Shown piece after piece: positions 1 to 16,256 of a stretch of DNA of 37,284 bases; position 1 is the stretch's first letter, and each line of letters starts with the position of its first letter. Origin of the DNA: a virus (taxonomy: Duplodnaviria; Caudoviricetes); the IMG/VR virus record IMGVR_UViG_3300010382_000023, positions 1 to 37,284 of that record; one strand, written 5' to 3'. The notes beneath the pieces were generated by a model, which was not told where the DNA came from, ran no database searches, and worked only from the letters and a program-made list of their open reading frames with translations. The translations under genes were made by a program, and so were the position numbers.

Positions 1-711
1 ATGACGCATGACGCTTTATACAGTGAGCTTACAGTTGAATTAGAACAAGAGTATTCCAAACGAATCGCCGAAATAACCATCGTTGAAAACTTTGTAGAAT
101 ATCATAAAGGAACTGCAACTGAAGATGTTGTGGGTGTAATCAGAAAGTCTTTAATTATGGTGCTATATTCACATTTCGAAGGCTATTGTAAGCAGGTATT
201 ACAATATTATGTTATATATATAAATAAAGAGAAGATTCTGTCTTCAGATGCAAAATCAGGCCTAATAGCTGCAAACATGCACAAAGAATTTCGTAAATTA
301 CTTGATAGCAATCATAAACCCGTAAACATGCATGATTTACTCAAAGAAGACGGTGTTCTACAACAATATGGGCGAAGGCGAGAGTTCCTTGGTCACTGGG
401 GCGAATTTATGACAAAGGAAATTAATATCGGTGAAGATTTTATTGATACAGAATCGAACTTAAAATCTCATGTTCTTAAAAAAATAATGTTTCAATTAGA
501 GTTAAACTATTCAATAGTTGATACATACCAAAACGAAATAAATAAACTTGTAAATATACGTAATAGTTTTGCCCATGGAGATCGTGTCGGATACCCTACG
601 AAAAAGGAGTATGACAATTATAGAGACGCCGTAGTTCACCTTATGGAAAAACTAAAAGATGAAATTGAAACATCTTTTTTAGATAGAGCATATATAAAAG
701 TATCTTCCTAG
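1..711 (+). CDS. HEPN-domain protein (MAE_28990/MAE_18760-like or RiboL-PSP-like), putative RNase/defence moron
   Basis: LYSHFEGY helix motif and RNSFAH (Rx4H) motif near the C-terminus; visibly AT-rich; convergent with the lysis cassette. Confidence 0.75.
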   Translation: MTHDALYSELTVELEQEYSKRIAEITIVENFVEYHKGTATEDVVGVIRKSLIMVLYSHFEGYCKQVLQYYVIYINKEKILSSDAKSGLIAANMHKEFRKLLDSNHKPVNMHDLLKEDGVLQQYGRRREFLGHWGEFMTKEINIGEDFIDTESNLKSHVLKKIMFQLELNYSIVDTYQNEINKLVNIRNSFAHGDRVGYPTKKEYDNYRDAVVHLMEKLKDEIETSFLDRAYIKVSS

Positions 712-5061: not shown

Positions 5062-5170
5062 TTGACAAAAGGACTCAAATCCGCATATACTGCGTATATA
5101 AGCCACTCTTAGCCTCATCGCTGGGCAATTGGAGCCTTGGAACGTTGCCAAGAAGGTGGCTTTTTTTGTT
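5062..5170 (+). ncRNA. Putative ~70-nt small RNA with its own promoter and terminator
   Basis: TTGACA(5062)-N18-TATACT(5086), then AAGCCAC...GTGGCTT closing stem and a T-run; no ORF. Confidence 0.55.
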
Positions 5171-5470: not shown

Positions 5471-6160
5471 CTACGCTACCATCAACAACCGGAAGGTTTC
5501 GCGGCCTTTGGGCGTAATCAGCGTTTGAGTACCACTCCAGTCTGTTTTTTCGTTAACGCACTCTTTGACCTCAAACAGGCCATTGTCCGCATGTTGCTGG
5601 AAAGGAAGCAGCTTACCGCGCTTGTCCCTGTATACATACTTGTGTTCCAGCAGGAATTCCACAAAATGCTTTGGAGCAACGTGTAGCTGTTTGGCCGTTT
5701 CCCGGAAGTTCGTCAACAGATTCCTCTCGACCAGTTCATCGAAATATTCCGCTTTAGGAGCCATGATGGCGTTCTGAACGGTCAGTTCGGCGTTGACCTG
5801 CTTCAATGCCTGCACGGTACGACTTGCCAGTTGAAGGGCGCGCGCCATAACCGCCTCAGGTTTGTTCCACGCTTCCTCTACGGCGATGAAGTATTGCCGG
5901 GCCTGTTTACCCTTTTCGGTGCGTTGGAGCATGCACAGTTCTTTCGCCATAGAAAGCGTGAGTTGATGATCTTGCGCTGGCCGGCCACCCGTACTTTCGC
6001 TCAAAAATGAGCAAAAGTCCGTTCCCTCAGTAAATCCGTATTCACACATGCGTGGGAACCAGTCCTTGTAGGCGGTCGAGACTTCCAACATCGCGTGCAG
6101 ATCGCGTCCTAACACTGTCGGTCGCTCGCTCTCAAGGTTGATCTTAATAAGCTCGTTCAT
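5471..6160 (-). CDS. ant: Phage antirepressor (AntA/AntB N-terminus, KilAC/ANT C-terminus)
   Basis: GRDLHAMLEVSTAYKDWFPRMCEYGF...MAKELCMLQRTEKGKQARQYFI; PKAEYFD...FRETAKQL...TLITPKGRE. Confidence 0.92.
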   Translation of the reverse strand: MNELIKINLESERPTVLGRDLHAMLEVSTAYKDWFPRMCEYGFTEGTDFCSFLSESTGGRPAQDHQLTLSMAKELCMLQRTEKGKQARQYFIAVEEAWNKPEAVMARALQLASRTVQALKQVNAELTVQNAIMAPKAEYFDELVERNLLTNFRETAKQLHVAPKHFVEFLLEHKYVYRDKRGKLLPFQQHADNGLFEVKECVNEKTDWSGTQTLITPKGRETFRLLMVA

Positions 6161-6186
6161 TCAAAAATCCTCCATCAAAAATTGAG

Positions 6187-6291
6187 TTGATAGAGGAATC
6201 CCAAGCTGATATAATAAATTTATCAGTGGGAAACCTCTGACGCAATAAAGGATGAGCGAACTTTAGTCGGTGCTGCTCGTCCTTTATTTTT
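6187..6291 (+). ncRNA. Putative ~70-nt antisense RNA to the ant leader (Sar-like), with promoter and terminator
   Basis: TTGATA(6187)-N17-TATAAT(6210) with extended TG; hairpin AATAAAGGATGAGC...GCTCGTCCTTTATT plus T-run at 6244-6291. Confidence 0.7.
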
Positions 6292-6436
6292 GAGCCAAAT
6301 ACTCGAGGATAATCATGCGGATAATTCCGCTCACCGTCGTCCCCTTTATAGCTGCCTCATGCTCCAATTTGTTTAGGTCACTTGGGGATAAAAACGTTGA
6401 TACCCTCTCGGTATTGGCTTTCTTCTTCGGCGACAC
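6284..6436 (-). CDS. 50-aa ribbon-helix-helix (Arc/CopG-like) regulator, absent from the ORF track
   Basis: GTG after AAGGAGGTG; MSPKKKANTERVSTFLSPSDLNKLEHEAAIKGTTVSGIIRMIILEYLAQK fits the RHH pattern. Confidence 0.8.
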   Translation of the reverse strand: MSPKKKANTERVSTFLSPSDLNKLEHEAAIKGTTVSGIIRMIILEYLAQK

Positions 6437-6453
6437 GCTATCACCTCCTTACG

Positions 6454-6487
6454 CGTACATTATATAGCCGTAACATGTACGTGTCAA
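6454..6487 (-). promoter_or_regulatory. Consensus sigmaA promoter of the RHH-ant operon with overlapping inverted-repeat operator
   Basis: TTGACA(6487-6482)-N17-TATAAT(6464-6459); CGTACAT(6454-6460)...ATGTACG(6475-6481) inverted repeat. Confidence 0.85.
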
Positions 6488-6503
6488 GAGCTTTTTGTGC
6501 GCC

Positions 6504-9500
6504 CTACTTCTTCATGCCAAGTATTCTTAGCATTGTGTCGTAGTACGCTTCTGCGGCTTTTCTTTGTTCGACTGATAAGCCATCGTCGGCGCGCTTTTTT
6601 TCGATGTACTCGTTAGCCAGCGCCCGGGCCTGTTGCGGCACGGTTTTGCCTTCGGGTATCTTTACCCCGATTACCGCCGCCATGATGTTCATTTCGCTCG
6701 GCGAGAGATCGCTCTTTCCGTCCTTGTCGCGATCAAGGCCCACGATGGAGGTGAGCTTGCCCGCGTTGGTGTTTCCGTCCAGGTCTTTCAGCAGGTAGTA
6801 GGCTTCCATCTTGTCGATACCCTGCGCAACGGCGGCTTGATACTTCTCCGTTTGGGACTGCGTCAGTGTATCTTTGGAATAGCTGTAGCCCTTGGGTAAG
6901 ATGGAGGACGGGCCATTGAGCAGGATTTTGAAGTAGTTATGCCAGTCTGGCTCTGCCGGGTATCTCAACCGCCCATCGTCCGCATAGTAATCGCCCTTAA
7001 CAAAAACCGTGTCTACTCCCCACGCCGTTTTTTTGATTTGCCCGCCGCCCCAAGGGAAGAAGCCAAGAGCAATGTACGCCGCTTCGGTCATAAGGCTGCC
7101 CACATCTTTCTTGCTATCTGCGAGCGATGTAACGAATCTCCACAGATCACTTACATTACTCGCCAAGGGGGTGCGCCCCCCGCTCCACACGGAACCAAAA
7201 GGCAGTTGCTCCACCGTATCGGAAATGGCTGCGCCTGCGTCATCTGCTGTGGCTATATTTATCGCAATGTCGATGGGACTGAACGCCTGATCGCCACCAC
7301 CGATAAGCCAACGCTTAAACTTGTTCCATCCAAACATCAGCACCATGTAAAGCAGCACCCGCCAGATCGTTTCTGGCGGCATTCCCTTGATTTTTTTCTC
7401 CGGCGCGTCCCAGTCTATGCCCTCTGTTGTCCCTCCGTTTCTTTGCTCTATGGCGTAGATTTGTTCACCGATTGCCTGCCGCGAGAGATCGCGGAAGTGG
7501 AACATCTGGTTCCAGCCCTCAAGCATGAACTGCATCCACGGTCTTGCGGCTCTTGCTGTGAATATCAACGGAACCGTGCCTTTGTTTCTGTCGGCAAACA
7601 TTTTCACGAGGAAGTCATCGGTTTCGCGTATGGCATCTTCCGGGGTGTAGCCTTTTTCCATAAGCTCGCCATACTTCGCGCGCGCTACGGTTATTGTACC
7701 GATGCGGTCGGTTACCTCAAACCACCAGCCAAGGAAATTCCCAAGTCCACGTTTGACCCTATCTACCTTGGATATGATGATCTTCTCATTCTGTTCCAGC
7801 CTGCGTGCGAGAGTCGGGATTTTTTCCGTGAATCCGTCTTCGTTCTTGAAAATGCCATTCTGGAACGTGTTCAGTATAGCGATTGGGATTTGCTTTGCTT
7901 GCAACCCCGGTACAGATGAGAACAGCGATATCAGGTTGGACAATCCAACCGATATGTTTCCCGCAACGGCGGCCCCGCCGACCGTGCCCGTCAACTTATC
8001 AGATATCGTGTAGATTTCTCTGCCTGCCGCGGCCTCAAGCGCGCGGTCAAGATCGGGCTTTTTATTGGCAAGCTGGTTCGTATAGTCGTGCAGCCACGTT
8101 ATAAGCGCGCTGTTTTTGCTGCCTCCGCTGTTTTCTCGCAGATACTTTTCAAGCTGCCTATGCCGTTGAATAACGGGCGTCATGTAGATAAGGGAGGACG
8201 CGCCTTGCAAGTAGCGGTTGAATCCCCGTATCGCGTCGTATTCCGTCAAATCCCCCATCCGTTCAAGCATGTGGGAAACAAACTGTCTTCCGGGGCTGAA
8301 GGACGCCGTAAGCCCCGCGATAGAGGATGGAAGTTTTTGTGCCTCGCCCTTGATTATGTCGATGAAGTCCTGCGGCCCATAAGCCTCTCGCCCGATGTGG
8401 TGGAAGTACTCCTGCCGCATGGGGATGGGCGAATAGCCGTTCTCCGTAAGCGAGCCGTTTTGCATCGGCAACACGCGGGCGTAGAAGTCCACAAGCGCAT
8501 CTTTAAGCTTCTTGACATCCTCCATATTCGGCTTTTGACCGTCCTCGATCACCGCGAGAGCGTTCATACCGGCGTAAACCGTCGTAACGTTCCCACGTTG
8601 CTGGATGATTAGGTTGCCCTGCGTAGAGGTAGGCTTTGCGTTGTTGAGCGCGCTAAGGTACGCCTCGCGGATACCCTTGTAGTATTCCTCGTTGGGCTGT
8701 CCGCGCTTTCTCTTTGAGGCCTCCTTTGCCGCCGCGATCTCCGCCTTGCGCTGCTGCGCGCGGTACTTCGAATCGAACATGAGCAGTTCGTTGCCCGAGG
8801 AGAGCGCCACAAGCTGCCCACGTTTGTCGAACAAGAACACGCCGTTTTCGGTTTTAACGACCATGTTCTTTTTGCCATAAATGGCGTTTGCCGCGTCTTT
8901 TTCGGCTATGATGCCCTCGCCAAGCATTTGTGCTAACGTGGAGGTGCTTTGCTTCCCGTCAAACGCTTCTAGCACCTTTGCTGTCTCGGCGTTCTCCCAC
9001 AGCGTGGCGGCTGCACCTTGGTCTTTCAAATACCCCAAATAGGTGTCCCGCAAGCGGTTACCCTCGAGGTAGTTTCCTGCGCGACCCTCCGATGTTTTCG
9101 TATCCCGCCAATTCGCAACATCTTCCCATATCCGGGCGGGGAACGAAAACGTAAGGGCGAGCTGCTTGCCGACCTCTCCGATAACGGATGGCTCGTTCCA
9201 CAGCTTCACATTTTCCAACAGCTTATCGAGTTCGACAGAGTTTATCATGCCGCCTTGGTTGAAGCCGTTGGCGAGGTACATACCCCTCAAAGCCAGCGCG
9301 ACTTCGTGATCTGCTCCGCCTTGTTGGTAATACTCCGCCACGGAAATACGCTCGCGGTATAACCGCTGCACCTCGCGCAGTTGCTTGATCTCGCGACCAA
9401 GCGTTTTCATGCGCTGTTCTTGTTTTAGCGTTTGAACTTGCTTCTCAAGCTCCGCACGGTCGCTTCCCGTGAGGCGTTGCTTCTCTCCGTCAATGGTGGT

Positions 9501-12500
9501 ATCTACGTAATAGGTCCCATCTTTTTTCTGATGAATGGCCGGCATGGGATAACTAACTTCGATGCCCTCGCCAATATCAAAGGAAATACGCGAGTGTTCA
9601 ATATTTTCGTTGCTATTTTCGGTGGAATCGAGTACGCTAGTTATAAGGACGTCATCAGCACTCGCCTCGGGTAATTGTTTCCCGTTGGAAAGAAGCTGCC
9701 TGATGTCCTCATTATTTTTGTTGCTTTCTTCAGCGGCTTCGAATATACTTTTATTAGGATTTAGGTGGGCATGTAAAGTCCCGCCGTTTCCGATAAGGAT
9801 TTCGTTAGAATCCACCTCGGGTAATTGTTTCCCGCTGACCAGGATCTGATGATCGTCCTTATTTTTTTTGTTGCTATTTCCAGTGGAATTGAGTATATTA
9901 GTTATGAAGATGTCGTCAGTGCTCGCCTCGGGAAATGACTTCCCGTTGGAAAGAAGCTGCATGATGTCTTCATTTTTTCTGGTATACCGCGTGCCTCCAG
10001 CCTTTGCAAGAAGGCCTTTAAAATAATCGGCCTGAAAAACAGAGACAACTCTGGTTTCCATCTCAATAGCACCCTGAACATTAAGATGGAATGGAATAAT
10101 TATTGGTTTACCGCTTTGATCTTTCCATTCAGTTACTACTATATAACTCTTATATCCCCCCTTGTTTGGCTGTGGATTATCCATAATTGCAACCGGATCG
10201 TCTATCTGGAATGGTAATTGCTTTAACACCGACATTCCAAGGTTATGCTTCCCATTAAAATAGCTTAATGGATAGGCAATTTTCCTTGCCGTTGATTGTT
10301 CCATGTAAAGTGTACGGTCAGGAAAACCATTTTCAATCAGAATTCCCGGGGTCTTGCCGAGAATAACCATCTGGCCCGATGGTAACGAGCCATCGAAAAC
10401 ACCATCTATTTCTTGATGATACCGTCTAAGATTATCCTCGTCGGTAATAGGTAGAGTTTTTGCTTCTTCTCGACTTACTTCGCGCCCACCCACCCGCGAA
10501 TACTCGACCTTATTGTCCGTCCACCGGGGTGTTTGTAGATTTTTGGCATACGGCCCCATATTGACAGATTTGAAAAGGTCGAATATACTAATACTATCTA
10601 CACCACCCGCACCACCTGACGCGTTCTGCGTCGGCGAGTTCAGCAAAGCTTGCTTTGTTGACAGCGGGTGGTGATCTATTTTGCTCACATCCACGTCATC
10701 AACAGCATAGCCATGCATCCGGTCAACCGTATCGTTGAGAGACAGTTTCAGCGTGGTCTTTACTGCGTAATACCCTCCATCGTATTTAATGAGGTTTACT
10801 AGGTATGTAAATTCGCTGTTCTCCGACTTTTCCTTCCCCGATACAGCCCTTCCGAGATACTTTGATGCTTCAAGAATTTGTTTGTATTGCGGAAGAATAC
10901 GCAGAAGTAACGTTTGGTGCTGCGCATCGCCATGCCTTTGATAGATGACTTTGCGCATGCCTTGCTTATAGTCCAAGATTACCGGCATGTTAAGCTCCGC
11001 AATCGTCACGGTTTCATTTCGCGTCCCGCTTTTTAAAAAGGCGTCCGCTTCTCTCTGCATGGTCGGTATGCCTTGGGCGGTATATATCGTAGTTGGATTA
11101 ATTACCGTAGCATCTACCCGCTCGCCCTTCCAACGCTCCGCAGGAAATAAAACAGCCGCCGTCCGCGAATACTCCGGATCGCCCGTTGCTTTCAGGTTGT
11201 CCGTTATAGCCGTTGTGTCCTTTACGGCTTCTGTATAGAACGCACCGCGGTTTACGAGGGCTTGCCAGAAGGCACGCTGGAAGTCGTTTTTTATATCCGC
11301 GTTTACTCCGAACGGGCGCACAGCTCCACCTTTATTCGTGCTCCACCAAGCACCATACATATCCGCGATGAGTTCGCGTGACAAGTCAACATGCCCTTCG
11401 TCTGGCGAAGAGATGCGCTCCGAACGATAGGCGGCATATTCGCTCACGATATCCTCGCCCCGATTGCTGAACGCCTCAATGACCTTTTGTCCCGCGGCAT
11501 TGATCTCGGGGATGTTGTGGGCGGTTTCATGAGCAGCCACATGTATGGGGTCGGCGCTATTGAGATTCACAAAGATTCTTTGCCCGTCCGTGAACCCCTC
11601 GCTGAACACATCGTCCGATTCGTACAAAAAAACATCGAGGGCGTTGATTCCCGCGATGTCTGTTATATCTGCCAATGCCTCTGTCAGTTCGGGCGGCGCT
11701 TCGTCCACAAGCCTTGCCGTTGCCTGTTTGCCGTCCGGAGTGCGCTTGTCAGCGATGTATCGTTTCAAGACCCGATCGGCCTGTTTGCGGCTTACTTCTT
11801 GTGCTTCGTTTCGGCTATCGCTTCTTCGTACTCCCTCTTGGCCTTTTTGGCGTCCCTGTTCAATTGAACCAGTTCGTGCAGTTTCTTCTCGTAAGGCCCC
11901 TGCGGTGCGTTGCGATCCACTGCCAACACCGGCCGTATCGGACGGATATCCTGCTTCTCTTCCATGGCTTAACTCCCCCTCTCGGCCTTCGTTTCGGCTA
12001 CTGCCTCCTCGTACTCTTTCTTGGCTCGTTTGGCGTCTTTGTTGATCTGCGCCCACTCTCGCATCGCTTTCGCGTAGGGGCAAGTCGAGGGCTCCCCGGT
12101 CGGTCTGCCCACCGGGCGCGCGTAGTGCAGTTCCTGCTTCTCTTCCATGGCTTAACTCCCCCTCTCGGCCTTCGTTTCCGCTATCGCTTCGTTGTATTCT
12201 TTCAGTGCTTGCTTCGCGTCCCGGTTGAGTTGCATCAGGTCGCGCAAGCCTTGCGCTTCCACCGACAGAGGCCGTTTCTCGCCCGTGCGTGGAATCTTTC
12301 CCAATATCGGTTGTATCAGCCGGATTCCCTGTTTTTCTTCCACCGTTTATCCCTCCTGCTTCTTGGTTAGTTCCTCGTACTCCGAGAGCACTTGCCGCGC
12401 TTCTTTGTCCAGTTGAAACAGATCTCTCAGTCCCTGTTCTTCCGGCGACAGAGGCCGCTTCTCGCCCGTCCGGGGAATTTTCGCCAATACTGAGCCGATT

Positions 12501-15308
12501 TCCCTGATTTTCCGTCCTTCCAACGTTTATTCCTCCTGCGGTCGTTCGGATGGCCTGTGCACTTCGCTGTACGCCGCTCTGCGCGGCTTCGCTTTGCTTG
12601 ATTATACTTTGTTCCTGCTGGATTTTCAAGGTCTGCGCGGCCTCTACAACGCCGTTTCGCAGACCTTTGAGCCTGTTTTCCGTCTTGATCTTCGCTGCGC
12701 CGTTCTTGGCGTTGGCAATCTCAACCTTTTGCAGGTATTTTGCTTTTGCCGCATTGAACGCCGCCTCGTCGCCCTTTTGCATGGCCGTGGTCATGGCGTC
12801 ATAGGAAGTCTGCAGGTCGGCCTTAAGTTCCATCTTGGCAATGTTGAAATCGGCATTTACTTCCGCAATCTGCGCTGTGGCCGTCTGGATGGTGTTTTGG
12901 AACTTCATCGCCGCCTGCGGATCGCTGCGCACCGCCGCCGCGTATGCCTCTGTAACGGCTTGTACGGCGGCTTCGTTCATACCCATATTCTGCGCCGCCG
13001 CGACAACTTCCGCGACTTGGGCGGTCTGCTGCTGGGTCAGCGGGGCCGCTGCGGGCGTTTCCGTGTTCACGAGCGCTTCCATGGGTGCACCCTGCGCAAT
13101 CGCCTGCGCGATCGCTTCCTGCGCCGCTTCCGATATACCGGGTGCAGCAGTGGGAATGGCGGCATTTTGCGGTGCCACTTGTTCGGTGGGCACGCCCGTC
13201 AAACCGCCCACGTTTGGCGCGGTGTTGGGCTGCACAGGAGAAGCCGCCCCCATAACGGCGGGCATTCCGGATGTATCTCCGGAATAAGCCCCGGTTCCCC
13301 CCGCTAACCCGCTTTTTATCATCCTGATCTGCTCATCAACGGCATCTAGTCCTTGGAGGACTTCGTTTATAAACGATTGCTGACCCGCATAATAGTGCTG
13401 CGAGATCGCGCCACGGATGGTTTTATTGTATTCGAGAATCTTTTCAAGAGCAGCAGCCCTTTGAGCGGGGGTCATGTTTTCATTCAACGTTGCCTGATAA
13501 TCGCGGCGCATTTGTTCGACCGCGTTTTCAAGATAAGCTTTATTCTGCTTTGTGACCTGCGCAGTATTCACCGCCGAGGTAATCGCCGAAAACAGGAACG
13601 AAACCGCGATATCCTGTGCAATTTGCTCTTTCGACGGGCGGCTTCCTTCGGGATACAGCCAATAAGTTGATGTGATTCTCCCAGCGGCAAAAGCGGTTCC
13701 GGAAAGCGTCTGCCGCAAGGCTTCCGCGAACGGCGTCTGTAAGCCATACTTGACAAGGATGGATTTTCCGAGATCGCCTACAACGATTCCCGCGATGCTC
13801 CCCGCTGCGCCGCCAACGGTGTTTATGCCCGCCTGTTTTAGCACGTTGCTTACCTGATCCCACGCGCTGTATTCAATAGGCTCGTACATATAGCCCTGTT
13901 CAAGGTAATAATCCTTCTTCGCCTGTTCGAGCTGGTTCCACTCATCGCGCGTTACGGTATTAGTCATTCCCTGATACGCTCCCTGCGCGCCGAATGTAAG
14001 GCTGTTAATAATCACTTTCTGTAGGGCCGGGGCCACTTTAGAAAGCCACGGAATCGCTTCTTGCAGCGCCGCTATACCGCCCCCTATGGCATCGCCCATC
14101 ATAAGCAAAGAAGTAAGATCACCTGTTACATTTCCGGCAGCGTATGCTCCTTCGTTCGCGGTCTTTATCTCGGCGAATTGCTCCTGAATGCTTTTGCTCG
14201 CTTCTGTCCTTGTTCCCTTTGCGGCAAGGTCGAAACCCTTATCCATGAGCCAATCGATTCCAAAGGCCTCCGCAAAACCGGCCCCAAAGCCCGCGCCCCA
14301 ATTCGATTTATTTTGAAGATTAATATAAACATTCTGGATTTCAGCCGGCATATTCGTATAAAAAACATCGCCCTGATCCACCACGGAATACTTACCCTGC
14401 ATTGCCTTAAGAGCGGCTTTTGCTTCGCGCTTTTCGTCCCCAGTAAGCGTATCCTTCTGCGAAAGTTCAACATACCTTGTCCAGTTATCGCCGAAGTTTC
14501 TGTGTCCTTCACTACTCTTGGCGATAAACGCGGCCTGTGCCGCTGCTTCCCGCTGTTTTTTCGCTTCCAACTCTGCAAGCTGCGCCTGATATTGCTCGTA
14601 TTCCTTCTGCTGTCCCCTCGCGATGCGCTGATGCTCCCAGCCGGAACGGGCGGCAGCATAAGCCTGACGCTCGGCGGCATACTTTTTCAGAAGGTCATCA
14701 TATGTTACGCCTTTTGTGTAGTCCTCGGTATACTTTCCTGCCACGGCTTCCTGTGTGGCTTTCAGCTTTTCCTCATCGAGCGCGCCCGAGTACGCGTCAA
14801 CTCCCTTCCATGCGGAAAGAACCGCGTCGGTGTACTCCTTCTGCTTCGCTTCCGTGGCAAGCGCGCCCTGCGCGTCGTAATAGTATTTTGAAAACTGCGA
14901 GTACGAAGGGAGTCCTTGCGAAAGAAGATAAAGATCGATATCGCTATCGGTATATTTGGATGCATACGAAACAGGCATATACCCGGCGGCCTTACGCGCC
15001 GTATCGATCTGATCGAGTACATTATAAGCGTCAGCCCATCCGGACTGATAATTCGACTTCACGCGATCCAAAACGTTCTGGTCAAGACCGGACAAATCGA
15101 TGGCAGGGGTTTCAGAAGCAAAGGTGAACTTGTCACCGTCACGTCTTAATTTTCCTGTTCCGCTCTTGACATAATTATAGAAATTCTTATATAGAGCACT
15201 TATTTCGGCGGAGCTATACGCTGCTGTGGCTGATGGAGTTTTTCCGTTTTTCCGCCAATCATCAAAACCTTGAAAAGCTTCAATAAAATCTCTTTTTGCG
15301 TCCGCCAT
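6504..15308 (-). CDS. Large polyvalent protein, probable virion ejection protein: Gly/Ala-rich hydrophobic helices, HExxH metallopeptidase, LPD3-like and MuF-C/PBECR-like domains, helical C-terminus
   Basis: 2934 aa at the position of podovirus internal proteins; HETAH at 11517-11531; YLVNLIKYDGGYYAVKTTLK...MHGYAV (LPD3-like, ~10690-11100); LGKTPGIL...HNLGMSVLKQLPFQIDDPVAIM (MuF-C-like, ~9985-10450). Confidence 0.8.
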   Translation of the reverse strand: MADAKRDFIEAFQGFDDWRKNGKTPSATAAYSSAEISALYKNFYNYVKSGTGKLRRDGDKFTFASETPAIDLSGLDQNVLDRVKSNYQSGWADAYNVLDQIDTARKAAGYMPVSYASKYTDSDIDLYLLSQGLPSYSQFSKYYYDAQGALATEAKQKEYTDAVLSAWKGVDAYSGALDEEKLKATQEAVAGKYTEDYTKGVTYDDLLKKYAAERQAYAAARSGWEHQRIARGQQKEYEQYQAQLAELEAKKQREAAAQAAFIAKSSEGHRNFGDNWTRYVELSQKDTLTGDEKREAKAALKAMQGKYSVVDQGDVFYTNMPAEIQNVYINLQNKSNWGAGFGAGFAEAFGIDWLMDKGFDLAAKGTRTEASKSIQEQFAEIKTANEGAYAAGNVTGDLTSLLMMGDAIGGGIAALQEAIPWLSKVAPALQKVIINSLTFGAQGAYQGMTNTVTRDEWNQLEQAKKDYYLEQGYMYEPIEYSAWDQVSNVLKQAGINTVGGAAGSIAGIVVGDLGKSILVKYGLQTPFAEALRQTLSGTAFAAGRITSTYWLYPEGSRPSKEQIAQDIAVSFLFSAITSAVNTAQVTKQNKAYLENAVEQMRRDYQATLNENMTPAQRAAALEKILEYNKTIRGAISQHYYAGQQSFINEVLQGLDAVDEQIRMIKSGLAGGTGAYSGDTSGMPAVMGAASPVQPNTAPNVGGLTGVPTEQVAPQNAAIPTAAPGISEAAQEAIAQAIAQGAPMEALVNTETPAAAPLTQQQTAQVAEVVAAAQNMGMNEAAVQAVTEAYAAAVRSDPQAAMKFQNTIQTATAQIAEVNADFNIAKMELKADLQTSYDAMTTAMQKGDEAAFNAAKAKYLQKVEIANAKNGAAKIKTENRLKGLRNGVVEAAQTLKIQQEQSIIKQSEAAQSGVQRSAQAIRTTAGGINVGRTENQGNRLSIGENSPDGREAASVAGRTGTERSVSTGQRSAASALGVRGTNQEAGGINGGRKTGNPADTTDIGKDSTHGRETASVGGSARLARPDATQPGREASTERIQRSDSGNEGREGELSHGREAGTALRAPGGQTDRGALDLPLRESDARVGADQQRRQTSQERVRGGSSRNEGREGELSHGREAGYPSDTAGVGSGSQRTAGALREETARTGSIEQGRQKGQEGVRRSDSRNEAQEVSRKQADRVLKRYIADKRTPDGKQATARLVDEAPPELTEALADITDIAGINALDVFLYESDDVFSEGFTDGQRIFVNLNSADPIHVAAHETAHNIPEINAAGQKVIEAFSNRGEDIVSEYAAYRSERISSPDEGHVDLSRELIADMYGAWWSTNKGGAVRPFGVNADIKNDFQRAFWQALVNRGAFYTEAVKDTTAITDNLKATGDPEYSRTAAVLFPAERWKGERVDATVINPTTIYTAQGIPTMQREADAFLKSGTRNETVTIAELNMPVILDYKQGMRKVIYQRHGDAQHQTLLLRILPQYKQILEASKYLGRAVSGKEKSENSEFTYLVNLIKYDGGYYAVKTTLKLSLNDTVDRMHGYAVDDVDVSKIDHHPLSTKQALLNSPTQNASGGAGGVDSISIFDLFKSVNMGPYAKNLQTPRWTDNKVEYSRVGGREVSREEAKTLPITDEDNLRRYHQEIDGVFDGSLPSGQMVILGKTPGILIENGFPDRTLYMEQSTARKIAYPLSYFNGKHNLGMSVLKQLPFQIDDPVAIMDNPQPNKGGYKSYIVVTEWKDQSGKPIIIPFHLNVQGAIEMETRVVSVFQADYFKGLLAKAGGTRYTRKNEDIMQLLSNGKSFPEASTDDIFITNILNSTGNSNKKNKDDHQILVSGKQLPEVDSNEILIGNGGTLHAHLNPNKSIFEAAEESNKNNEDIRQLLSNGKQLPEASADDVLITSVLDSTENSNENIEHSRISFDIGEGIEVSYPMPAIHQKKDGTYYVDTTIDGEKQRLTGSDRAELEKQVQTLKQEQRMKTLGREIKQLREVQRLYRERISVAEYYQQGGADHEVALALRGMYLANGFNQGGMINSVELDKLLENVKLWNEPSVIGEVGKQLALTFSFPARIWEDVANWRDTKTSEGRAGNYLEGNRLRDTYLGYLKDQGAAATLWENAETAKVLEAFDGKQSTSTLAQMLGEGIIAEKDAANAIYGKKNMVVKTENGVFLFDKRGQLVALSSGNELLMFDSKYRAQQRKAEIAAAKEASKRKRGQPNEEYYKGIREAYLSALNNAKPTSTQGNLIIQQRGNVTTVYAGMNALAVIEDGQKPNMEDVKKLKDALVDFYARVLPMQNGSLTENGYSPIPMRQEYFHHIGREAYGPQDFIDIIKGEAQKLPSSIAGLTASFSPGRQFVSHMLERMGDLTEYDAIRGFNRYLQGASSLIYMTPVIQRHRQLEKYLRENSGGSKNSALITWLHDYTNQLANKKPDLDRALEAAAGREIYTISDKLTGTVGGAAVAGNISVGLSNLISLFSSVPGLQAKQIPIAILNTFQNGIFKNEDGFTEKIPTLARRLEQNEKIIISKVDRVKRGLGNFLGWWFEVTDRIGTITVARAKYGELMEKGYTPEDAIRETDDFLVKMFADRNKGTVPLIFTARAARPWMQFMLEGWNQMFHFRDLSRQAIGEQIYAIEQRNGGTTEGIDWDAPEKKIKGMPPETIWRVLLYMVLMFGWNKFKRWLIGGGDQAFSPIDIAINIATADDAGAAISDTVEQLPFGSVWSGGRTPLASNVSDLWRFVTSLADSKKDVGSLMTEAAYIALGFFPWGGGQIKKTAWGVDTVFVKGDYYADDGRLRYPAEPDWHNYFKILLNGPSSILPKGYSYSKDTLTQSQTEKYQAAVAQGIDKMEAYYLLKDLDGNTNAGKLTSIVGLDRDKDGKSDLSPSEMNIMAAVIGVKIPEGKTVPQQARALANEYIEKKRADDGLSVEQRKAAEAYYDTMLRILGMKK
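9610..9719 (+). ncRNA. Embedded antisense sRNA unit 1 (promoter, long hairpin, T-run)
   Basis: TTGCTA-N17-TACGCT; stem AGGACGTCA/TGATGTCCT; apical CGGGTAATTGTTTCCCG. Confidence 0.6.
9721..9869 (+). ncRNA. Embedded antisense sRNA unit 2
   Basis: TTGCTT-N17-TATACT; extra 5' hairpin; stem ATAAGGAT/GTCCTTAT plus T8; same apical CGGGTAATTGTTTCCCG. Confidence 0.65.
9871..9978 (+). ncRNA. Embedded antisense sRNA unit 3 (adjacent to the MuF-C-like domain)
   Basis: TTGCTA-N17-TATATT; 13-bp stem ATGAAGATGTCGT/ATGATGTCTTCAT plus T-run; apical CGGGAAATGACTTCCCG. Confidence 0.65.
10561..10682 (+). ncRNA. Embedded antisense three-way-junction sRNA adjacent to the LPD3-like domain
   Basis: TTGACA-N17-TATACT; perfect 10-bp closing stem CACCACCCGC/GCGGGTGGTG enclosing two hairpins, one with a G(CUUG)C tetraloop. 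Confidence 0.7.
11792..11965 (-). CDS. Overprinted small protein D (57 aa, +1 frame inside the polyvalent gene)
   Basis: MEEKQDIRPIRPVLAVDRNAPQGPYEKKLHELVQLNRDAKKAKREYEEAIAETKHKK; ATG after GAGGGGGAG; paralog of A-C. Confidence 0.75.
   Translation of the reverse strand: MEEKQDIRPIRPVLAVDRNAPQGPYEKKLHELVQLNRDAKKAKREYEEAIAETKHKK
11969..12148 (-). CDS. Overprinted small protein C (59 aa)
   Basis: MEEKQELHYARPVGRPTGEPSTCPYAKAMREWAQINKDAKRAKKEYEEAVAETKAERGS; ATG after GAGGGGGAG. Confidence 0.75.
   Translation of the reverse strand: MEEKQELHYARPVGRPTGEPSTCPYAKAMREWAQINKDAKRAKKEYEEAVAETKAERGS
12152..12343 (-). CDS. Overprinted small protein B (63 aa)
   Basis: ORF-track entry MEEKQGIRLIQPILGKIPRTGEKRPLSVEAQGLRDLMQLNRDAKQALKEYNEAIAETKAERGS; GTG after AGGAGG. 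Confidence 0.75.
   Translation of the reverse strand: MEEKQGIRLIQPILGKIPRTGEKRPLSVEAQGLRDLMQLNRDAKQALKEYNEAIAETKAERGS
12347..12523 (-). CDS. Overprinted small protein A (58 aa)
   Basis: MEGRKIREIGSVLAKIPRTGEKRPLSPEEQGLRDLFQLDKEARQVLSEYEELTKKQEG; TTG after AGGAGG (12532-12537). Confidence 0.75.
   Translation of the reverse strand: MEGRKIREIGSVLAKIPRTGEKRPLSPEEQGLRDLFQLDKEARQVLSEYEELTKKQEG
12601..12629 (-). promoter_or_regulatory. Internal sigmaA promoter upstream of the overprinted gene array
   Basis: TTGAAA(12629-12624)-N17-TATAAT(12606-12601), about 80 nt before ORF A. Confidence 0.75.
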
Positions 15309-16103: not shown

Positions 16104-16130
16104 TGCTGTATCTCCTTAAAATGGTATAAT
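16103..16130 (+). promoter_or_regulatory. Promoter of the solitary CRISPR repeat RNA
   Basis: TTGCTG-N16-TATAAT with extended TGn; -10 at 16125-16130, 13 nt before the repeat. Confidence 0.7.
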
Positions 16131-16143
16131 TTATACAGTAACC

Positions 16144-16175
16144 GTCGCGTGCTACGTGCGCGCGTGGATTGAAAT
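16144..16175 (+). CRISPR. Solitary type I-C CRISPR repeat unit (candidate RNA anti-CRISPR or mini-array)
   Basis: GTCGCGTGCTACGTGCGCGCGTGGATTGAAAT: 32 nt, 7-bp stem at positions 3-9/15-21, canonical 11-nt TGGATTGAAAT handle; no cas genes in the window. Confidence 0.85.
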
Positions 16176-16222
16176 ACCTTATCGCTGTTTGTCACGTCAC
16201 TCGGCGACATGCGCACGAATGG

Positions 16223-16256
16223 AAAACCGGCAGCTAAAAACAGTTTCCGGTTTTTT
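16223..16256 (+). terminator. Terminator closing the repeat-containing RNA (possibly bidirectional)
   Basis: AAAACCGG...CCGGTTTTTT. Confidence 0.7.

Follow-up and report, generated by a model that had tools for sequence, protein, structure and literature searches.

The question raised by this locus is why a single phage gene should hold promoters, structured RNAs and small reading frames beside its predicted enzymatic domains. The window analysed is the whole virus record IMGVR_UViG_3300010382_000023 (37,284 bases), and the gene (6504..15308, minus strand) is an open reading frame (ORF) of 2934 amino acids (aa) called as a polyvalent gene. It has Pfam MuF_C (E 8.6e-12) and LPD3 (E 2.3e-6) domains along with a HExxH motif, and belongs to the virion module, with portal, terminase, capsid and integrase genes nearby. 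A preliminary description of this DNA had proposed that each of the three domains is an effector with its antidote nested in the same reading frame. Comparison with related loci suggests that nested RNA genes paired with RNase-type domains of phages are a real, widespread and apparently undescribed class. The RNAs probably act on the protein as antidotes, binding and blocking predicted RNase domains that would be delivered with the phage DNA; we infer delivery, RNase activity, transcription and RNA-protein binding alike.

The MuF-C domain (9984..10250, minus strand; Pfam aa 1687-1775, with the fold beginning at about aa 1610) is a predicted BECR-fold RNase with a K-H motif. Its structure model (pLDDT 84.5) has a helix and a four-stranded meander, as the BECR fold requires. 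The top fold matches are contact-dependent inhibition (CDI), BrnT, colicin D and RelE toxins, led by CdiA-NC101 (Z 5.7), BrnT (Z 4.9) and the colicin D tRNase (Z 4.6), and the best has a root-mean-square deviation of 2.9 over 83 aligned positions. A Foldseek search with this domain gave no match with E <0.001. K85-H86 is conserved and the His is kept in 38/38 loci; as a predicted RNase with a catalytic His, the domain would cut RNA. Past it on the plus strand lie the three diverged antisense RNAs of the preliminary description, which are indeed related copies with folding z-scores of -4.0, -3.3 and -3.3, each ending in a U run. Unit A (9871..9978) has a promoter at 9871-9899 (TTGCTA-17-TATATT) and its RNA at 9904-9978. 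Unit B (9721..9870) has a weak promoter at 9721-9749, an extra 5' hairpin and a core RNA at 9793-9863, and unit C (9610..9718) has a weak promoter at 9610-9638 and its RNA at 9643-9718. The RNA, in which a short G-C stem carries a loop of 7 nt, resembles an anticodon arm in shape. Rfam gave no match in this region of the window or in 12 related loci.

The LPD3 domain (10734..11066, minus strand; Pfam aa 1415-1525) is predicted to form a helix and a beta-meander, and the order of elements in its model appears BECR-like. A profile comparison of LPD3 with MuF-C was negative. The single structured antisense RNA that had been described past this domain is also present, at 10596..10683 (plus strand), with a 10-bp outer stem, two inner hairpins, a short U tail and a folding z of -5.0. 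Its promoter (10561..10589, plus strand; TTGACA-17-TATACT) has boxes that are kept in the related locus L041 and reads SISIFDLFKSVN in the host frame, so that this peptide, as had been claimed, is a pair of promoter boxes translated. The closest relative of the window, P0002, keeps LPD3 and its promoter. In P0002 and L041 the 10-bp outer stem of the RNA is kept, and both inner hairpins differ in sequence.

The placement of these units recurs across related loci. The MuF_C set has 38 members: the 23 matches above the cut-off used, out of 26 in 23/400 genomes; 14 loci picked by eye from 81 redundant viral and metagenome loci, which still hold two near-identical pairs; and the window. The LPD3 set has 22, namely the window and the 21 matches above cut-off and without stops, out of 33 in 28/399 genomes. 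An antisense promoter scoring at least 10 in the zone 40-160 nt past the domain was present in 34/38 MuF-C and 20/22 LPD3 loci, and a sense-strand promoter in 2 and 4 loci, respectively. The background in other zones of the same ORFs was 32/924 for MuF-C and 18/372 for LPD3 (3-5%). The best antisense promoter lies 54-94 nt past the end of the MuF-C domain in 37/38 loci; in L102 the unit lies further from the domain than usual.

The RNAs themselves appear to be conserved as RNAs. Folding z is below -2 in 35/37 distinct MuF-C RNAs, against 2/37 control stretches, and in 19/22 LPD3 RNAs, a set in which the window copy was clipped. An alignment of 31 MuF-C RNAs, from which eight longer, divergent, redundant or unit-less rows were excluded and to which the two extra window copies were added, has 12 pairs, 11 of them with double-sided changes. 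Pairing is 87.9%, against 70.9% in shuffled alignments (the shuffles ignore relatedness) and 35-51% in slid ones. In 17/31 host frames the apical hairpin is translated as GLQLP or RLQLP, and its codons are strongly biased, with CAA for Gln in 24/24, TTG for Leu in 20/22 and GGG for Gly in 18/20, compared with 0.49, 0.22 and 0.20 in the domains. Where the host frame has GVQFP, the change is a compensatory swap in the RNA hairpin. At the sequence level, the protein motif GLQLP is a shadow of the MuF-C RNA. Among 124 homologs available only as proteins, the hairpin shadow is present in 98 and the -35 shadow in 90.

The MuF-C RNA ranges over Clostridia, Pasteurella and Stx phages. Units are present in Lyz12581Vzw (z -6.6) and Pasteurella phage Pmp11 (z -5.1), and in 933W with a weaker promoter (z -2.9). 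In several loci of other phages a single domain is followed by extra RNA units in tandem, or by their protein shadows (L150 at aa 589 and 680; P0108, P0134, P0154, P0194 and P0216). L144, in genome G224, has MuF-C and its RNA unit within an ArdC/MPTase polyvalent gene of the conjugative-element type. In L056, L061, L079, L102 and L127 the RNA units are intact in spite of breaks in the host frame past or around the domain.

Copies of the RNA also lie away from any MuF-C domain, and the first of them, in the window itself, adds to the features of the preliminary description. Unit D (5062..5168, plus strand) is intergenic, between a 77-aa ORF and the next gene, with a promoter at 5062-5091 (TTGACA-18-TATACT) and an RNA at 5096-5168 that has the canonical GGCAAUUGGAGCC hairpin and a U tail. 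The 13-mer of this hairpin occurs once in the window and in 0/100 shuffles. Unit D matches RNA model R1, for which it was not in the training set, at 20.8 bits (E 0.04), and its centroid fold agrees with the family. A search of 160 genomes with a model derived from the alignment, in which 61 candidates were scored per genome, overlooked known units in G009, G083, G088 and G091. It found 18 places, eight of them already known. Promoter-bearing orphans, with no MuF-C domain in six frames, are found in G014, G060, G123, G173 and G252 (5/160 genomes; the positive controls were detected). G060 has a cluster of nine units of mixed type, flanked by what we take to be spoVT and hemN; two of them come after their own domain, in a 688-aa remnant, and the other seven have no recognisable domain ahead of them. 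One G060 unit is 96.7% identical over 60 nt to an RNA inside a phage gene of G020. G123 has a different set of units at the same site, and G173 has two orphans between genes that are presumably smpB and pyrR. The preliminary description had suggested that extra diverged copies could protect against effectors of related phages, and orphan copies do exist, as such cross-protection would predict. At sites without a sense partner an antisense silencer would be useless, and a folded inhibitor would not. On balance the orphans favour an antidote that acts in trans and on the protein over antisense silencing. The matches L180 and L181 lie near a contig end. The match L168 was rejected since it is without a promoter and resembles a terminator. 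The chromosomal site in G060 and G123 (L183, G060:C17; L184, G123:C22) is variable, with several types of promoter-hairpin unit and a remnant with PBECR-like, peptidase and LPD3 domains.

A mechanism that would join these features begins with the anatomy of the unit: a promoter, a hairpin of 65-95 nt and a U tail, antisense just past a MuF-C or LPD3 domain. The giant protein would be carried in the virion and its RNase domains injected along with the DNA. The RNA would be transcribed from its housekeeping-type promoter, either in the lysogen or immediately upon entry, and would serve as a folded decoy for the domain, in the case of MuF-C by way of the loop that resembles an anticodon arm. Nesting would allow effector and antidote to be shuffled as a single in-frame cassette. 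Copies B, C and D and the chromosomal clusters would extend protection to the domains of other phages, and, less securely, the four small proteins described below would do the same job for the peptidase. The picture as a whole, in which temperate phages inject RNase effectors and a large class of RNA immunity is nested antisense, with orphan arrays gathered by phages and bacterial chromosomes as acquired immunity to phage-delivered effectors and small proteins set against peptidases, is offered more tentatively than the RNA antidote itself.

The units track certain domain types. A strict scan of 32 related long ORFs annotated with Pfam found units after PBECR3 (2/2) and after unannotated meander domains, and none after ART-PolyVal (0/4), MPTase-PolyVal, LPD23, LPD25 or SNF2. 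The claim that every effector domain has a unit beside it is too broad: RNA units follow MuF-C, LPD3 and PBECR3, and none was seen past ART-PolyVal. Mu gp30, which is called inactive in the accessible text of Iyer et al. 2017 (PMC5512222), has by eye no His in the corresponding segment, no promoter scoring 9 and no hairpin motif, and a catalytically dead domain without a unit fits the RNA half of the proposal. That units pair strictly with domains which retain the catalytic His would also suit an RNA that is a non-inhibitory partner of its domain, such as a cofactor, a guide, a packaged ligand or a substrate whose cleavage times a step of infection. The same paper, in the part available, allows that PBECR domains act on phage RNAs or simply bind RNA. 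Such a partner is unlikely, because bacteria would gain little from cofactors of enzymes they lack, yet 7/9 units of the G060 cluster are domainless, and the MuF-C RNA has no evident variable guide segment.

It is somewhat less likely still that the RNAs are cis-antisense silencers of the type I kind, which would pair with the late mRNA, trigger its cleavage and damp leaky toxic expression in the lysogen. The RNAs are fully complementary to the mRNA just past each domain, and antisense antitoxins that overlap at the 3' end are common in Firmicutes. The orphans, however, have no sense partner, and unit D has a complement of at most 9 nt to the giant mRNA. A near-fully paired rod with a conserved loop would also be a poor base-pairing RNA; its fold and loop are conserved beyond mere overlap, and silencing gives no reason for the tie to BECR-type domains.

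The remaining units, ahead of the peptidase, are of a different kind. The predicted zincin metallopeptidase domain (11214..11771, minus strand; HETAH at aa 1260, distal Glu 1312) has no Pfam family. Residues H1260, E1261, E1312 and D1316 are invariant in nine homologs, and the look-alikes of the domain in the atlas are unnamed proteins only. An internal sigma-A-type promoter in the sense direction (12601..12629, minus strand; TTGAAA-17-TATAAT, 11/12 consensus), whose boxes read LKIQQEQSII in the host frame, as had been noticed, is followed by the four +1-frame ORFs of the preliminary description, all on the minus strand. These are ORF 1 (12347..12523, 58 aa, TTG start), ORF 2 (12152..12343, 63 aa, GTG start), ORF 3 (11969..12148, 59 aa) and ORF 4 (11792..11965, 57 aa). 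They are the only sense alternative-frame ORFs of at least 30 aa in the whole giant gene with a Shine-Dalgarno energy of -9 kcal or better. Codon preference over them is 0.11 in the +1 frame, against -0.21 in the host frame, and the host frame wins in all nine other regions of the gene. The four are paralogs (49-62% to ORF 2), with 136, 111 and 175 differences at codon positions 1, 2 and 3 over 339 aligned codons. Identity is higher in the small frame than in the host frame for 12/12 pairs, of which the window and a second family supply six each, in alignments that were built in the small frame, a choice favouring it. The small ORFs look like real genes under selection at the protein level.

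Overprinted ORFs precede 7/22 HExxH motifs in 18 genes, a weaker link than that of the RNAs to their domains. Shadows of the promoter and ribosome site are present in 7/9 of the close homologs listed, and the second family of small ORFs precedes another peptidase subfamily in four loci. P0002 has, before its peptidase, a TTGCGT-17-TATAAT promoter, a strong ribosome site and one +1 ORF of 90 aa. The window ORFs are only 20-25% alike to those of L041 and L042, so that their homology rests on position. The small proteins have no Pfam or PHROG family above noise, the exact sequences of three are absent from the sequence collection searched, and the four ORFs have no tblastn match in the fetched loci. 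These proteins could be antidotes to the peptidase, a reading held with some reserve. Peptidases of polyvalent proteins have been proposed to process the polyprotein (Iyer et al. 2017, PMC5512222, accessible text), so a small-protein inhibitor could govern maturation rather than immunity. Overprinted +1 ORFs also lie directly after small unannotated domains in L141 (8855-9127), L145 (near aa 1977), L033 (3597-3854) and L036 (near aa 1227), and the one in L141 has a faint match to Imm15 (E 0.03).

That small ORFs adjoin other unannotated domains as well, and that phages use RNA decoys against host type III systems, would be expected if the units were independent cargo that rides in tolerant linkers and targets the host or competitors, as protein sponges, decoys for host defence RNases or early accessory proteins. 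This is improbable given the fixed distance to the domain (54-94 nt in 37/38 loci), the match of RNA type to domain type, and the joint loss of RNA and domain. P0002 shares the scaffold of the window and is without MuF-C and without all three of its RNAs, in line with the earlier expectation that unit and domain move together. The statement that the host peptide is of low complexity exactly where the units lie was too strong: entropy is 3.39 over the small ORFs, the RNA units have values of 3.76 and 3.62, and the minimum (3.17) belongs to an Ala-rich linker that has no unit. That linker codons and AT-rich patches gave rise to all these features by chance is hardly credible, since consensus hexamers are common (16 sites in the promoter scan against 8 expected in 10.5 kb) but positional enrichment and covariation contradict it.

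Several observations weigh against nested antidotes all the same. Separate promoters had been claimed for every unit, and those of copies B and C are weak, with only 8/12 and 7/12 consensus positions, and are absent from the scan list. The fold scores of MuF-C are middling (Z <8), and LPD3 has no clear match, with no Foldseek row at E <0.001 and a highest-probability row, the CDI toxin 6cp9_A, at prob 0.72. Sequence and inner shape are highly variable among the LPD3-linked RNAs, a diversity for which a strict mimic of a substrate would have no need. Across very different proteins the MuF-C loop barely changes, so that specificity, and hence the need for diverged copies, lacks an explanation. 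Unit D folds poorly by minimum free energy (z only -0.46). The orphan loci are in incomplete genomes and several adjoin remnants of polyvalent genes, so some may be products of decay. The strict scan behind the ART count overlooked four known units, which makes its absences soft, and Mu gp30 is one case only. For the other 15/22 HExxH motifs of related genes there is no small ORF upstream. Of the proposed effector-plus-antidote cassettes, the RNA half is well supported by comparison and the protein half is only suggestive.

The phage itself has integrase, repressor-like, terminase, P22/SU10-type portal, capsid and lysis genes according to Pfam, and by this content is a podovirus-like temperate phage. 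Its nearest genome relative is a Bacillota metagenome-assembled genome. Portal, capsid and terminase genes lie upstream of the giant gene, whose product is thus a large multidomain protein of the virion module, as is expected of polyvalent proteins. The neighbouring gene matches an internal virion protein, and the giant product is a predicted ejection or internal virion protein. Its packaging and injection would follow by analogy with phi24B gp47, a giant protein with MuF-C that is abundant in virions and a proposed ejection protein (10.64898/2026.04.10.717836, accessible text). The giant gene of Sp5 is indispensable for morphogenesis (PMC5155283, accessible text). The viral contigs searched hold no close relative for the scaffold, the peptidase or the small ORFs, and one weak relative for LPD3, which has no close relative among named phages. 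The region is present in one metatranscriptome, as contigs only, whose cover is low and flat across the whole prophage; strand, ends and level are not resolvable from it.

Other parts of the window have features of their own. The interval 6160-6504 has a perfect promoter at 6487 (minus strand) pointing to the antirepressor gene and, at 6187 (plus strand), an opposing promoter followed by a folded RNA (z -4.5); the layout recalls what we take to be the arrangement of P22 immI with its sar antisense control. An AT-rich gap with hairpins between two virion genes (16120-16255) is possibly a further promoter or terminator, and a HEPN (RiboL-PSP) gene at one end of the record (1-711, plus strand) may be defence cargo.

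Up to 26% of polyvalent proteins contain PBECR-type domains, whose functions are only predicted (Iyer et al. 2017, PMC5512222, accessible text). A cognate RNA would be a handle on them, which should permit the cloning of otherwise toxic domains and hint at their substrate. Conserved "protein motifs" such as GLQLP and SI...VN are shadows of RNAs and promoters that annotation has overlooked. Nested RNAs or ORFs in polyvalent genes are not described in the openly accessible literature searched, which includes a BECR preprint (10.64898/2026.08.28.747851, accessible text); the preliminary description likewise knew of no account of this layout. Catalogues of small RNAs from enterohaemorrhagic Escherichia coli or Clostridia may list single members unnamed. 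If the antidote reading is true, RNA would take its place among antidotes to delivered effectors, and conflict among phages and between phages and hosts may have a further, new layer in Clostridia and in common coliphages.

Among known systems, type III toxin-antitoxin (TA) pairs (ToxIN, AbiQ, CptIN, TenpIN) have a structured non-coding RNA that neutralises an RNase by direct binding, as is proposed here. Their antitoxins lie upstream on the same strand, are co-transcribed and are often repeats cut by the toxin, which is a cytoplasmic defence protein. Here the RNA is downstream and antisense, nested within the ORF and equipped with a promoter and terminator of its own; it is set against a BECR domain in a virion protein, and it matches no described antitoxin family (no Rfam match). 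In the type I TA systems of Firmicutes prophages a convergent sigma-A antisense RNA overlaps the transcript of a small hydrophobic peptide toxin and complementarity is needed, whereas the partner here is an internal domain of a 2934-aa protein and the complement of orphan D is at most 9 nt. Orphan immunity clusters of CDI and type VI secretion systems gather antidote genes without effectors at variable loci, but these encode proteins, and the clusters here are of RNA units of about 120-170 bp. For AbiF/RCd22, as here, the proposal is that a structured RNA binds an RNase directly and so neutralises it, in cis as well as in trans (PMC12373285, accessible text). The polyvalent proteins of Iyer et al. 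2017 (PMC5512222) share the protein class, the domains, the predicted virion delivery and the mosaic shuffling; the accessible text of that paper proposes no antidote, nested ORF or nested RNA, and suggests mRNA or CRISPR RNA as targets. MuF polymorphic toxins (Jamet et al. 2017, PMC5576092, accessible text) are likewise head proteins of temperate phages with toxin domains, a linked antidote that protects the lysogen and a model in which the toxin is delivered into competitors, and have an N-terminal MuF, a C-terminal toxin and a separate downstream gene for an immunity protein. In the giant protein of the window, by contrast, Pfam found no Phage_Mu_F match, the domains are internal, and the candidate antidotes are nested RNAs and overprinted ORFs.
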